A stretch of DNA of 64,000 bases from Escherichia coli O157:H7 (GTDB lineage Bacteria > Pseudomonadota > Gammaproteobacteria > Enterobacterales > Enterobacteriaceae): the NCBI RefSeq assembly GCF_013167455.1, contig NZ_CP038328.1; one strand, 5' to 3'. Within the stretch, counting starts at the first letter, position 1; every line of letters starts with the position of its first letter. A program made the position numbers. This document shows positions 21,488 through 30,400 of this stretch, in pieces.

Positions 21488-24400
21488 TTAATTCGTAAAA
21501 CGTGCTACCGATCACATTAAGAATTCTCAGCATAGTTGAATTTTAGGGAGGTAACCTCGGGCGAGCGCCCCGTTCAGCACACTAATTCTGCTGTAAAAAG
21601 TGCAGAAACTGACTTAAAGCATAAGAAGGCGTTTCGTTATTGCGCCAGAACACACCGACGCTACCTTTCTGTTCTATCTTTGGCAGGTTGAGTATCACCA
21701 GTTGTCCCTGGCTGGCATAACGTTGCGCCAGGCGTAATGACAAAATAGAGATCATATCGCTGCTTTGTAACAGGTTGGTACTGACGTTCATCGACGCCGA
21801 CTCAATCGTGTTTTCTGGCAGCATTACGCCGTGGTCTACCAGCGCATTATCAATACTAATGCGAATGGGGGTACCCGTCGGCCAGACGATCCAGCGCCAG
21901 TTGGCAAGATCATTCCAGCTGAGGGTGGCGTATTTCGCCAGTGGGTGCTCAGGGCGGGCGACAAAGCATACTGGCTCGGTGTACAGCACCTGATAATTCA
22001 GTGGCAGCTGCAATGCGCGACCGCCAATTCGCCCAACGACCACATCGACAGAACCGGCCAATAGATCTTGCAGCAATGGGGTCATCACCTTCTCTTCGAT
22101 ATTCAGGTGTAGAGTTGGCATCTTCGTAAGCAAATGCAAAATCGCCTGGGATACGCAGTCAGTGGCGACGGGAGAACAGCCAATTTTCAGACTGCCGACC
22201 AGTCCACCTTGTTTAAAACGGGCCAGTTCATGTTGCGATCGCTCCATGTCATTGATTAACCGTTGGGCATGTTGCAATAACAATTTGCCGCCTTCAGTCG
22301 GACGTAATCCTTTGCTGTGCCGCTCAAAAAGTGTGATTCCAATCTCATCTTCGAGTTGTGACAACCATTTCGAAAGCGCAGGTTGGGTGATATTCATCAT
22401 TCGTGCGACATGGGTTAGATTGCCCTGTTCACCCAGCGCCACCAGCATTTCAAGGTGATGTAGTTTTAATTTTTGCGCCCAGTTCGCCATTTGCCATAAC
22501 CTCAAGGTTATCTCTCTGCCCGAAATGCCATTGTACATCTCATCTCTTTAATCACAATATCGCAACATATACAAAACAAAAGAAACATCTACCTTACCTG
22601 CACTGAGGCATTTACTATGACTCAACGACGTGATTTACAAGCACTTATCGATGCTGCTCCGGTCGGCAAGATGCAGTGGCGCGTTATCATCTGCTGTTTT
22701 CTGGTGGTAATGCTCGATGGTTTTGACACCGCGGCTATCGGATTTATCGCCCCTGATATTCGCACTCACTGGCAACTCACCGCAGGCGATCTCGCCCCGC
22801 TTTTTGGCGCGGGTCTGCTAGGATTAACCGCAGGCGCACTGCTTTGTGGCCCGTTGTCCGATCGCTTTGGTCGCAAGCGGGTGATTGAGCTGTGCGTCTT
22901 TTTGTTTGGCGCGTTAAGCCTCGCCTCGGCTTTCTCACCGGATCTGCAAACGCTGGTCTTCCTGCGCTTTCTCACCGGCCTGGGTCTGGGCGGCGCGATG
23001 CCGAACACCATCACCATGACCTCGGAGTATCTGCCTGCCCGCCGCCGCGGCGCGCTGGTGACGCTGATGTTTTGCGGCTTTACGCTGGGTTCGGCGTTTG
23101 GCGGGATTGTCAGTGCGCAGCTGGTGCCGGTGATTGGCTGGCACGGCATTCTGGTGTTGGGGGGCGTGTTACCGCTGATGCTGTTTGTCGCACTGCTGGT
23201 AGTTCTGCCGGAATCGCCACGCTGGCAGGTGCGCCGCCAGCTACCGCAGGCGGTGATTGCGAAAACCGTCAGCGCCATCACCCGCGAGCGTTATGTCGAT
23301 ACCCACTTTTATCTCATTGAATCAGCCTCCGTTACAAAAGGCAGCATTCGTCAACTGTTTATGGGACGTCAGTTACCCATCACGTTGATGCTGTGGGTAG
23401 TGTTCTTTATGAGCCTGCTGATTATTTACCTGCTCTCAAGCTGGATGCCGACGCTACTGAACCATCGCGGCATCGACCTGCAACACGCGTCCTGGGTCAC
23501 CGCCGCGTTCCAGATTGGTGGTACGTTAGGCGCGCTGGCGCTGGGTGTGCTGATGGATAAGTTCAATCCTTTCCGCGTGCTGACGCTGAGCTATGCCATA
23601 GGCGCTATATGCATCGTGATGATTGGCTTAAGCCAGGATGGATTATGGTTGATGGCGCTGGCGATTTTCGGCACTGGCATTGGCATTAGCGGATCGCAGG
23701 TGGGGCTGAATGCGCTGACCGCAACACTTTATCCAACACAAAGTCGAGCCACGGGCGTGAGCTGGTCAAATGCTATCGGCCGCTGCGGCGCGATTGTTGG
23801 TTCGCTGTCTGGCGGCGTGATGATGGCGATGAATTTCTCTTTCGACACCCTGTTTTTCATTATCGCTGTGCCTGCGGCGATCAGTGCGGTGATGTTAACC
23901 CTGCTGATTACCGTGGTTCGCCAGTCGACCTCTGTCCCTGACTCACTGCCTCGCGCAGGCGTTGTGAACGAATAAGGAGCATCTCAATGACTGATAACAA
24001 TCAAAATAGCCGCGAGCAATTTTATCAGCATATTTCCGGGCAAAACCTGACCCCGCTGTGGGAGTCACTGCACCATCTGGTGCCGAAAACGCCCAACGCT
24101 AACTGTGCGCCAGCGTACTGGAATTATCAGGAGATCCGCCCGCTGCTACTGGAGAGCGGCGGCCTGATTGGTGCGAAAGAGGCCGTGCGCCGCGTGCTGG
24201 TGCTGGAAAACCCGGCGCTGCGCGGGCAGTCTTCCATTACCGCGACTTTATATGCCGGTTTGCAACTGATCATGCCGGGCGAAGTGGCACCGAGTCATCG
24301 TCATAATCAGTCGGCGCTGCGTTTTATTGTTGAAGGCAAAGGGGCATTTACCGCCGTTGATGGCGAACGCACGCCAATGAATGAAGGCGATTTTATCCTG

Positions 24401-27400: not shown

Positions 27401-30400
27401 GAGTCGGTACGAATTCCGCGCACCGCGCGCATCGTCTGGTCGACCCGTGAAATGGGGCGGGTTTACCACGCCGCAGGGGTAGAACGCCAGGTACGTAATC
27501 TGCTGTGGAAAGGGAAATCGCAGGCAGAATTTTATCGCGGCATGGAGTGGTTGTACGGCTGGAAAGAAGATAACTGTTTGCAACCACGCTAAGCACTTCT
27601 TCACCCAATCAGGCGCACGGGCGGTCCCCTCGCCCCTTCGGGAGAGGGTTAGGGTGAGGGTAAAAATCTTGCCCGAATTAATCAGTAAGTCAGTTTGTCT
27701 GCAAACACAGGAGGCGCTAACATAGCGCCTCATTTTTTTGCGGGTGATGATATGCGTGTGTTACTGGCTCCGATGGAGGGAGTGCTTGACTCTCTGGTGC
27801 GTGAATTGCTGACCGAAGTTAACGACTACGATCTGTGCATCACCGAGTTCGTCCGCGTGGTGGATCAACTGCTGCCGGTGAAAGTCTTTCATCGCATTTG
27901 CCCTGAGCTACAAAACGCCAGCCGGACACCATCCGGTACGCTGGTGCGCGTGCAGTTGTTGGGTCAGTTCCCACAATGGCTGGCAGAGAACGCCGCCCGT
28001 GCGGTGGAATTAGGTTCCTGGGGCGTGGATCTCAATTGCGGCTGCCCGTCGAAAACGGTTAACGGTAGCGGTGGTGGGGCGACGTTACTCAAAGATCCTG
28101 AACTCATCTACCAGGGGGCAAAAGCGATGCGTGAAGCTGTACCGGCGCATTTGCCCGTCAGCGTGAAAGTGCGTCTGGGCTGGGACAGCGGTGAGAAGAA
28201 ATTTGAAATCGCCGATGCGGTTCAACAGGCTGGTGCTACGGAGCTGGTGGTGCATGGACGGACAAAAGAGCAGGGTTACCGCGCGGAGCATATTGACTGG
28301 CAGGCGATTGGCGAGATTCGCCAGCGGCTGAATATTCCGGTGATTGCCAACGGCGAAATCTGGGACTGGCAGAGCGCGCAAGAATGCATGGCGATCAGCG
28401 GCTGCGACTCAGTGATGATTGGTCGCGGGGCGCTCAATATTCCCAACCTGAGCCGGGTAGTAAAATATAACGAACCGCGAATGCCGTGGCCGGAGGTGGT
28501 TGCTTTGCTGCAAAAATATACCCGTCTGGAAAAGCAGGGCGATACCGGGTTATATCACGTAGCGCGGATTAAACAGTGGTTGAGTTATTTGCGTAAAGAA
28601 TACGATGAAGCAACAGAATTATTTCAGCATGTTCGTGTGTTGAATAATTCCCCTGATATTGCAAGGGCTATTCAGGCAATTGATATCGGTAAGCTGCGAT
28701 AATAGTGGAATCGCAGTTTATCAGAAACAATGAATCGCTTATTCAGCTTCATCATCTTGTTGCGCTCCTTTCATGAGCTAAGCCACATATTGCCACTGGC
28801 GCAAGGAGCGCGCAGGGGGAGGACAATCGCCTCCTCCCCCTGCACCCCCGGGCTCTGGCGAACAAAATCGCCGCTGCGCGGTACCTTCAGCTTATCCCCT
28901 TCGGCTACCGGGTCGGGCGCGAGGAAACGTCCTTGTAAGACGCGCCCTCAGCCCACATCCATGTGGGCTGCCCCGGCCTTCGGGGAACGCTTCAGCGATT
29001 TTGACGCCACCAACACCGGAGCTGTTTGCAAATCAAGTACACAAAATATCTAGTTCCTGACCTGACAACTTATATGTCATATCTGATTTTTAAAATATCA
29101 TCTTAAATACGCCAGTCACCACCAGTAGCCCAATCAGGAAAATAATCAATACAGCCCAGAGTATAATTTTCATTGGCGTTCCTTTATTTGTGAGTGCTGA
29201 ATAAGTATAGGAAAAAACGAAGCCCTTTGCCGTTATCCATAAACGATTAAGATAAATCGGAAGATATCATTCACTTAGTGTATATTTTTCTGGATATGTC
29301 GTTTTATTGCTACTGATGTATTGCCACGCGAAACTAAAAAATATATCGCAACACACGGTAATCTCCGCGCACCTTTTCTTACCTGATTATTCCCCCATGA
29401 ATCGTGATTCCTTTTATCCAGCCATCGCCTGTTTTCCGCTGTTACTGATGCTGGCCGGGTGTGCGCCTATGCATGAAACCCGCCAGGCGTTAAGCCAGCA
29501 AACGCCCGCTGCACAAGTTGACACCGCATTACCCACGGCGCTGAAAAATGGTTGGCCAGACAGCCAATGGTGGCTGGAGTATCACGATAATCAACTCACT
29601 TCCTTAATTAACAATGCACTACAGAACGCACCGGATATGCAGGTGGCTGAACAGCGCATTCAGTTAGCTGAAGCCCAGGCGAAGGCAGTTGCTACTCAGG
29701 ATGGTCCGCAGATCGACTTTTCTGCGGATATGGAGCGGCAAAAAATGTCGGCAGAAGGGCTAATGGGGCCGTTTGCTCTGAACGATCCGGCCGCAGGTAC
29801 GACCGGTCCGTGGTACACCAACGGAACTTTTGGCTTAACGGCGGGCTGGCATCTCGATATCTGGGGAAAGAATCGGGCGGAGGTTACTGCCCGCCTGGGT
29901 ACGGTTAAAGCACGGGCGGCGGAACGCGAGCAAACCCGCCAATTGCTGGCTGGCAGCGTAGCCCGCCTGTACTGGGAGTGGCAAACCCAGGCGGCGTTAA
30001 ACACGGTCTTGCAGCAAATCGAAAAAGAGCAGAACACCATTATCGCGACCGATCGCCAGCTATATCAGAACGGGATTACTTCTTCAGTTGAAGGTGTGGA
30101 AACCGATATTAATGCCAGCAAAACCCGGCAGCAGCTCAACGATGTCGCGGGGAAAATGAAAATTATTGAGGCACGGTTAATTGCACTCACAAATCACCAG
30201 ACTAAGTCATTGACGCTTAAACCGGTGGCGTTGCCGAAAGTGGCAAGCCAGCTTCCTGATGAACTGGGGTACTCCTTACTGGCCCGGCGGGCAGATTTGC
30301 AGGCGGCGCACTGGTACGTTGAGTCATCGCTAAGCACCATTGATGCGGCAAAAGCGGCATTTTATCCTGACATCAACCTGATGGCCTTCCTGCAACAGGA

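Follow-up and report, generated by a model that had tools for sequence, protein, structure and literature searches.

The mhbR-mhbTDHIM locus of Escherichia coli O157:H7: a known 3-hydroxybenzoate operon between yohJ and dusC, very probably ancestral and deleted from K-12

The window analyzed here is a 64,000-nucleotide stretch of the Escherichia coli O157:H7 genome (contig NZ_CP038328.1 of RefSeq assembly GCF_013167455.1), and the element in question is the six-gene mhbR-mhbTDHIM locus that lies between yohJ and dusC (Table 1). The locus is already known and annotated: the RefSeq annotation here has mhbT, gtdA, maiA and a 3-hydroxybenzoate 6-monooxygenase, the region is 100% identical to that of E. 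coli 2017C-4109, and its internal 5.5 kb have a 100% match in many O157:H7 genomes, EDL933 among them. An earlier note, made from the sequence alone, took the genes for an accessory metabolic insertion. Comparison across genera argues instead that this known operon is very probably ancestral to the Escherichia/Salmonella/Citrobacter/Klebsiella group and that the K-12 state is derived by deletion.

All six open reading frames (ORFs) that the earlier note placed between yohJ and dusC are found where it put them, with two corrections of the start, in mhbR and the isomerase gene. Its family labels are borne out by Pfam and NCBIfam profile scans, the gene order that it likened to Klebsiella mhbRTDHIM matches both Klebsiella loci and the published cluster (PMC3572157), and family scores and RefSeq names agree with its assignment of the genes to the 3-hydroxybenzoate/gentisate pathway. 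The five plus-strand structural genes are only 8-14 nt apart and therefore form one operon; the same tightly packed order, R/T-D-H-I-M, recurs in Klebsiella, Citrobacter, Salmonella and others. On the right, the NF007838 match of dusC (695 bits) opens at residue 20 of the longest ORF, which is why the dusC start is set at 27752.

Table 1. Features of the mhb locus and its borders, in window coordinates
Feature	Position	Strand	Description and basis
Distal yohJ-mhbR spacer, 58 bp	21524-21581		Left border of the segment not shared with K-12
mhbR	21582-22490 favored; longest ORF 21582-22538	-	302 aa (favored start); LysR-type regulator; Pfam, RefSeq
Inverted repeat ATAACC-N4-GGTTAT	22496-22511		Putative MhbR recognition site; spacer alignment
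mhbR promoter-like element	-35 at 22557-22552; -10 TACAAT at 22535-22530	-	Predicted; consensus scan
mhbT promoter-like element	-35 TTGTAC at 22531-22536; -10 CACAAT at 22553-22558	+	Putative; spacing 16; read by eye
mhbT	22617-23975	+	452 aa; aromatic acid/H+ symporter of the major facilitator superfamily (MFS)
mhbD/gtdA	23987-25015	+	342 aa; gentisate 1,2-dioxygenase; TIGR02272, PDB 2D40
mhbH	25030-25731	+	233 aa; FAH-family hydrolase (putative fumarylpyruvate hydrolase)
mhbI/maiA	25740-26384; longest ORF from 25737	+	214 aa; zeta-class glutathione S-transferase (GST), maleylpyruvate isomerase; RefSeq start 25740
mhbM	26399-27592	+	397 aa; FAD-dependent 3-hydroxybenzoate 6-monooxygenase; NF006021
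Lineage-specific insertion, 112 bp	27599-27710		In the mhbM-dusC spacer of the O157 allele
Hairpin and T-run	27711-27739	+	GAGGCGCT-AACAT-AGCGCCTC, with TAACAT carried by the loop; terminator scan, folding
dusC	27752-28702	+	tRNA dihydrouridine(16) synthase; right-hand backbone gene; NF007838, RefSeq start

Salmonella and Klebsiella break down 3-hydroxybenzoate through gentisate, and the pathway runs from 3-hydroxybenzoate to gentisate, maleylpyruvate, fumarylpyruvate and finally fumarate and pyruvate (PMC3572157). As predicted from their families, the six genes encode this route in full. MhbT would take up 3-hydroxybenzoate, its putative substrate; MhbM, with FAD, NAD(P)H and O2, would hydroxylate it to gentisate; MhbD, an Fe2+ cupin dioxygenase with a bicupin fold, would open the ring to give maleylpyruvate; MhbI, a glutathione-dependent zeta GST, would isomerize the latter to fumarylpyruvate; and MhbH would split fumarylpyruvate into fumarate and pyruvate.

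The assignments differ in strength. The dioxygenase scores 597.6 bits on TIGR02272 (cutoff 442) and is identical in 342 of 342 residues to PDB 2D40, an E. coli O157:H7 structure that is the product of this very gene, the deposited chain adding a 12-residue N-terminal extension. MhbI reaches 309 bits on TIGR01262 (cutoff 171) and 167 bits against the maleylpyruvate isomerase structures 2V6K/2JL4. MhbH matches Pfam FAA_hydrolase (E = 2e-54) and reaches no NCBIfam equivalog cutoff; in the PDB it comes closest to 6J5Y (377 bits), followed by 4MAQ (246 bits), described as a ‘putative fumarylpyruvate hydrolase’, and operon context together with Klebsiella MhbH suggests that its substrate is fumarylpyruvate. 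MhbT matches Pfam MFS_1, bears the RefSeq name 3-hydroxybenzoate transporter MhbT and is 86-87% identical to its Klebsiella orthologues.

The monooxygenase requires closer attention. Genome-scale metabolic models of enterohemorrhagic E. coli (EHEC) name gentisate 1,2-dioxygenase and salicylate hydroxylase as EHEC-specific reactions (PMC3229490), which raises the alternative that the operon acts on a different aromatic acid, for example with its monooxygenase serving as a salicylate hydroxylase, as those early models have it. The best structural relatives of MhbM, PDB 4BJY/4BJZ (264 bits), carry the title ‘probable salicylate monooxygenase’, and MhbT lies under the MFS subfamily cutoffs; yet MhbM scores 756 bits on NF006021, the 3-hydroxybenzoate 6-monooxygenase equivalog (cutoff 459), and only 138 bits on the salicylate 1-monooxygenase model (cutoff 446). 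It is also 89-91% identical to the orthologues of Klebsiella oxytoca, michiganensis and grimontii, the Klebsiella M5a1 enzyme being a 3-hydroxybenzoate 6-hydroxylase, and 4BJY/4BJZ are the Rhodococcus 3-hydroxybenzoate 6-hydroxylase. A different substrate is thus very unlikely.

MhbR has both Pfam domains of a LysR-type regulator, HTH_1 and LysR_substrate, and is 84-85% identical to its Klebsiella orthologues. Its gene diverges from mhbT across a 126-bp spacer. An alignment of this spacer over 20 taxa, ranging from E. coli to Xenorhabdus, shows that both half-sites of the inverted repeat ATAACC-N4-GGTTAT, ATAAC and GTTAT, are invariant in all 20. The repeat, which resembles the PcaQ box, ATAAC-N5-GTTAT (PMC3572157), is probably the MhbR recognition site, and PcaQ is also the NCBIfam model nearest to MhbR. 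Because RefSeq places the mhbR start at 22490 and the invariant repeat lies upstream of that position, this start is more likely than 22538. The block CCATTGTACA, which holds both promoter-like elements (22530-22558), is conserved across Enterobacteriaceae, and the mhbR and mhbT promoters appear to overlap divergently; overlapping divergent promoters are typical of LysR divergons. The MhbR of Klebsiella M5a1 is a LysR-type regulator that activates mhbTDHI, and mhbM lies there downstream of mhbI (PMC3572157). The E. coli protein may bind ATAACC-N4-GGTTAT, sitting over its own leader, and, on sensing a compound of the pathway, switch on the mhbT promoter, with both binding and effector putative.

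The mhbRTDHIM cluster of Klebsiella (pneumoniae/oxytoca) M5a1 has the same six genes in the same order and orientation, with the LysR gene divergent from mhbT and mhbM last (PMC3572157). Three Klebsiella loci of the comparison set, whose members are given L numbers here (L015, L026, L032), encode proteins 84-91% identical to those of the window and also lie between yohJ and dusC. They differ in the mhbM-dusC spacer, which is 146-203 bp and REP-like (resembling repetitive extragenic palindromes) in Klebsiella and holds the 112-bp insertion with a dispersed repeat in the window; regulation and transport have been studied experimentally in Klebsiella, whereas for the E. coli locus both are read from sequence. 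In Salmonella enterica, utilization of m-hydroxybenzoate proceeds by the gentisate pathway, so far as the work of Goetz and Harmuth (1992) is cited in PMC3572157, and the Infantis cluster is about 78-82% identical in nucleotides to that of the window, the same as its flanks. More distant systems, nagIKL of Ralstonia sp. U2 and gtdR-gtdA of Cupriavidus necator, share the chemistry of dioxygenase, glutathione-dependent isomerase and fumarylpyruvate hydrolase, and the C. necator operon also has a LysR regulator, a 3-hydroxybenzoate 6-monooxygenase and an MFS transporter (PMC11603403). The isomerase NagL is the 2V6K structure matched by MhbI. Gene order and context in Ralstonia and C. necator are unlike those of the E. 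coli locus, and the C. necator system reportedly responds to maleylpyruvate (PMC11603403).

The earlier note stated that yohJ and dusC are adjacent in K-12, and in MG1655 dusC (b2140) and yohJ (b2141) are indeed separated by a 238-bp spacer. Homology between K-12 and the window stops at 21523 and restarts at 27712. The latter position was considered as the right breakpoint and rejected as misleading, since the O157 allele has an extra 112 bp; E. coli MB53 and E69 place the breakpoint about 4 nt past the mhbM stop. With MB53 as the junction reference (its Cdd, YohK and YohJ have the same protein sequences as those of K-12), the K-12 deletion measures about 6.07 kb, from 58 bp past the mhbR stop to about 4 nt past the mhbM stop. 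A filler of about 106-108 nt replaces the deleted segment (K-12-type locus L002, 2125-2232); it occurs as a single copy, and 4,921 of the 5,426 complete E. coli genomes (about 91%) have it, a distribution that fits one shared deletion event. The first 38 nt of the filler equal the spacer between yohJ and an intact mhbR in O157:H7 strain TR01 (L088, 2501-2538) and are absent from the window by a 38-mer search; occurring beside an intact gene, they are therefore an allelic form of the spacer. Where TR01 has this 38-nt version, E. coli MB53, E69, E. albertii and other genera share the 58 bp found in the window.

Two blocks between yohJ and the cluster, at about 21474-21487 and at 21501-21516, are conserved in all genera examined. 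The former, ATTCATCATACAAT, reads ATTGTATGATGAAT on the other strand and matches the published YieP motif atTTGTaTGAcaAAT (PMC7642389). The latter is a palindrome, (C/T)GTGCTACCGATCACA, that looks like a CRP site; 7 nt separate it from the K-12 deletion breakpoint on its right, so that the yohJK control region was spared.

On the other side, the 112-bp insertion contains a dispersed intergenic repeat of about 55 bp (27611-27665), which we take to be boxC; its median copy number in E. coli genomes is 16. In E. coli MB53, E69 and Citrobacter the mhbM-dusC spacer is only 61-64 bp, with TAATCCGCTGACCGG at the position of the insertion; K-12 shares CTTTAATCCGCTGACC of this short spacer. An Rfam scan of 21300-27900 at E <= 1 gave no match, and the repeats and the hairpin before dusC therefore belong to no known RNA family.

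To place the locus in a wider context, one genome per species was scanned with the dioxygenase and the hits were mapped by tblastn, so that the survey samples cluster-bearing genomes. About 30 species representatives from at least 10 genera have the order sanA-cdd-yohK-yohJ / mhbR mhbTDHIM / dusC-mdtQ: E. albertii and the divergent E. coli E69; about ten Citrobacter species; Klebsiella oxytoca, michiganensis, grimontii and spallanzanii; and Raoultella, Kluyvera, Pseudocitrobacter, Pluralibacter, Shimwellia, Entomohabitans and Pseudenterobacter. Salmonella Infantis, the only serovar examined, has the same cluster arrangement in the same yohJ/dusC slot. Synonymous divergence (dS) from the window is alike in cluster and flanks: 1.1-2.1 against 1.2-1.8 in Salmonella and 0.34-0.67 against 0.31-0.78 in E. 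albertii. Omega, the nonsynonymous-to-synonymous ratio, is 0.03-0.18 in all comparisons and, judged by these values, all cluster copies are under purifying selection. In every copy the six genes align over their full length or lack only the final 2-4 nt (mhbM), except for a plasmid mhbR that aligns over 854 of 909 nt, and no internal stops were found in blastn alignments of all copies; apparent stops in Salmonella mhbD proved to be an artifact of framing a gapped blastn alignment, the record annotating the gene as intact.

Some records call for comment. The Salmonella Infantis source (L085) is pZ1322HSL0046-2, a 499-kb sequence labeled a non-mobilizable plasmid; it carries the chromosomal series preA-sanA-cdd-yohKJ-mhb-dusC-mdtQ-yohF and probably represents a piece of the chromosome submitted under a plasmid label. 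A contig labeled as a Collinsella metagenome-assembled genome (L048) has mhbR and mhbT 100% identical to the window, but mhbH and mhbI are missing altogether and mhbD in part. E. coli DNA has most likely contaminated this bin, and the gap would reflect an internal deletion or a misassembly. In Serratia (L031, L035, L041), Trabulsiella (L010, L020, L043) and Cedecea (L034) the cluster is not flanked by yohJ/dusC; the Serratia proteins are 87-92% identical to those of E. coli, apparently a high value for members of another family and one suggestive of transfer from Enterobacteriaceae. The neighboring mdtQ (29397-30833) is intact in the window, encoding 478 aa, and is annotated as a frameshifted pseudogene in K-12.

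Acquisition of the cluster as an accessory island, inserted horizontally between yohJ and dusC in the O157:H7 lineage, would accord with its absence from K-12 and from about 89% of complete E. coli genomes but not with its identical position, orientation and spacers in E. albertii, Salmonella, Citrobacter, Klebsiella, Raoultella, Kluyvera, Pluralibacter and Shimwellia, nor with a cluster dS that equals that of neighboring housekeeping genes in every genus pair. The cluster is mobile elsewhere (on an island flanked by IS66/ISEc60 in O145 and O103, next to IS1A on IncF plasmids, and out of synteny in Serratia and Trabulsiella), and its GC content is slightly above that of the flanks (55.0% versus 51.5%), but searches for traces of insertion at the native locus are negative, as the earlier note reported for integrase, tRNA and direct repeats: no integrase-like ORF or transposase there among ORF calls and annotation, no tRNA within window positions 10-40 kb, and no direct repeats bracketing the cluster in a search for direct and inverted repeats, which returned short chance-level matches only. 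A 14-nt exact repeat at 21506 and 26611 was set aside, as it does not bracket the segment. The K-12 site, moreover, holds a non-homologous filler and is not a clean empty site. The expectation that K-12-like genomes lack the cluster at this locus holds for K-12 itself but fails for MB53, which has it. Taken together, these points make an inserted island highly improbable, and cross-genus synteny, cluster dS equal to flank dS and the lack of tRNA, integrase and bracketing repeats are the reasons for reading the K-12 state as derived.

Several observations weigh against this account of an ancestral operon of known function. The growth role of the mhb operon in this strain is read from sequence. 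The NCBIfam model closest to MhbR is PcaQ (187 bits), and those nearest to MhbT are PcaK (427 bits) and TIGR00895 (380 bits), all under their cutoffs; the specificity of both proteins would for this reason follow from orthology (84-87% to Klebsiella oxytoca/michiganensis loci) and RefSeq naming. The GC difference is one further point. For the last 68 nt or so of the filler, which include a perfect 11-bp hairpin, AGAGGGATTGC-AGTT-TGCAGCAATCCCTCT, blastn-short against the window and about 88 compared loci returns no relative, and the deletion was therefore no clean excision. Finally, dS between O157 and MB53 is 0.11-0.21 in the cluster and 0.01-0.07 in the flanks, 3-10 times lower, a pattern for which vertical retention alone within E. 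coli does not account.

Within E. coli, the cluster occurs in 611-613 of the 5,426 complete genomes. About 505 of the 5,426 are without the filler (5,426 minus 4,921) and are expected to hold the cluster at its native locus. Provided that no genome is without both, this leaves about 108 in which the filler and a copy of the cluster occur together. Ectopic copies lie beside IS66/ISEc60 remnants, on an island in O145 (where it adjoins efa1/lifA) and O103 chromosomes (L003, 6001-12117; L087), and beside IS1A on IncFIA/FIB conjugative plasmids, with 26 plasmid places (e.g., p1RM9088, L084); strains with ectopic copies have an empty native site. The island copy corresponds to window 21530-27647, including the first half of the O157-type repeat insertion, so that the donor from which it was captured must have had this type of spacer. 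One IncF cluster plasmid also bears astA. In E. coli NCTC9041 (L090, 4583-6334) a truncated island-borne copy retains only mhbR, which is fused, upstream of dkgA, to part of a gene for an NADH-dependent alcohol dehydrogenase.

The excess of allelic dS in the cluster over that in the flanks would also be understandable if the E. coli ancestor had lost the cluster and native copies had been re-introduced from divergent Escherichia by homologous recombination through the yohJ/dusC flanks; deep alleles are, however, also expected when a cluster recombines rarely, most potential partners being without it. Per-gene identities among E. coli cluster alleles form a mosaic, and MB53 combines K-12-identical flank proteins with the cluster. 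TR01, which joins a K-12-like cdd-yohK flank (14 differences from the window) and the K-type 38-nt spacer to an otherwise O157-identical cluster, looks like a recombinant across the locus, as re-introduction would have it. The flanks at the junctions are nevertheless not more diverged (on the left there is 100% identity with K-12 as far as 21523, on the right a single mismatch over 138 positions), and no donor lineage was found, E69 and E. albertii being more distant than the E. coli alleles are among themselves. Re-introduction is a serious possibility, though less likely than not, beside continuous retention with little recombination.

The ancestral reading also bears on the border with dusC. 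The strong terminator that the earlier note saw about 12 nt before the dusC start is real by terminator scan and folding: the hairpin GAGGCGCTAACATAGCGCCTC (27711-27731) is followed by a T-run to 27739, leaving a gap of 12 nt to the ATG at 27752; its stem has 9 pairs, 6 of them G-C, with T7 after it, and RNA folding gives -21.1 kcal/mol (z = -5.0). A GC-rich stem-loop with a T-run thus stands 3' of the last co-directional gene and probably terminates the mhb operon, insulating dusC. It does not, as had been proposed, mark the end of an island: K-12 has the hairpin at the same distance from dusC, and every genus has it 12-20 nt before the dusC ATG, whatever lies upstream, which places it outside the presence/absence segment. 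In Salmonella, one stem position has a G-U-compatible change.

Kluyvera is instructive in this regard. An opposite-strand gene of 461 aa lies there between mhbM and dusC (L016, 13657-15042; similar in L019, L023, L027 and L051), and because of this insertion dusC has no co-directional upstream neighbor. A related Enterobacteriaceae bacterium has this gene as well. In Kluyvera only, the 5' arm of the hairpin has decayed (GACGTT for GGCGCT; folding z = +1.06), with the 3' arm, the T-run and the loop hexamer kept. This pattern supports two overlapping roles, a terminator and a further constraint on the 3' half, as far as sequence comparison can tell.

A candidate for that constraint lies in the loop. 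Together with the last stem base, it reads TAACAT, TACCAT, TATGAT or TACTAT, with T1, A2, A5 and T6 invariant across genera; TAnnAT is a candidate dusC -10 element, conserved like a sigma-70 -10 hexamer. A dusC promoter, TCAACA-18-CATCAT, has been predicted (PMC3946193); read by eye, it maps to about 21454-21483, beside yohJ, and was rejected for cluster-bearing genomes, in which 6 kb with convergent mhbR lie between it and dusC. In alleles with the 61-64-bp spacer, a dusC promoter that does not depend on induction by 3-hydroxybenzoate would seem to have no place but this mhbM-dusC spacer, which runs counter to the claim that this promoter must lie within or upstream of the island.

More tentatively, the presence and absence of the cluster at yohJ-dusC may be an old polymorphism within E. 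coli, enterohemorrhagic lineages without the native copy (O145, O103) having regained the pathway by the island or IncF plasmids, and the dusC hairpin may be a terminator and a -10 element at once. If so, deep allelic lineages would persist because carriers rarely meet recombination partners, there would have been repeated selection for using plant-derived hydroxybenzoates in a ruminant or plant niche, and the combination of terminator and TAnnAT would explain why the hairpin hardly varies between genera and shows no compensatory changes.

The genes are annotated, one enzyme has been crystallized from this strain background and the pathway is textbook knowledge in Klebsiella and Salmonella, so the locus itself has little discovery value. 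What the comparison adds is a correction of direction: with K-12 as the only reference, an ancestral operon that was retained passes for an acquired island. The ectopic copies, found in non-O157 EHEC and on plasmids, hint at selection for the pathway in some habitats, and the hairpin beside dusC is a small case of a terminator that may overlap the promoter of the next gene.

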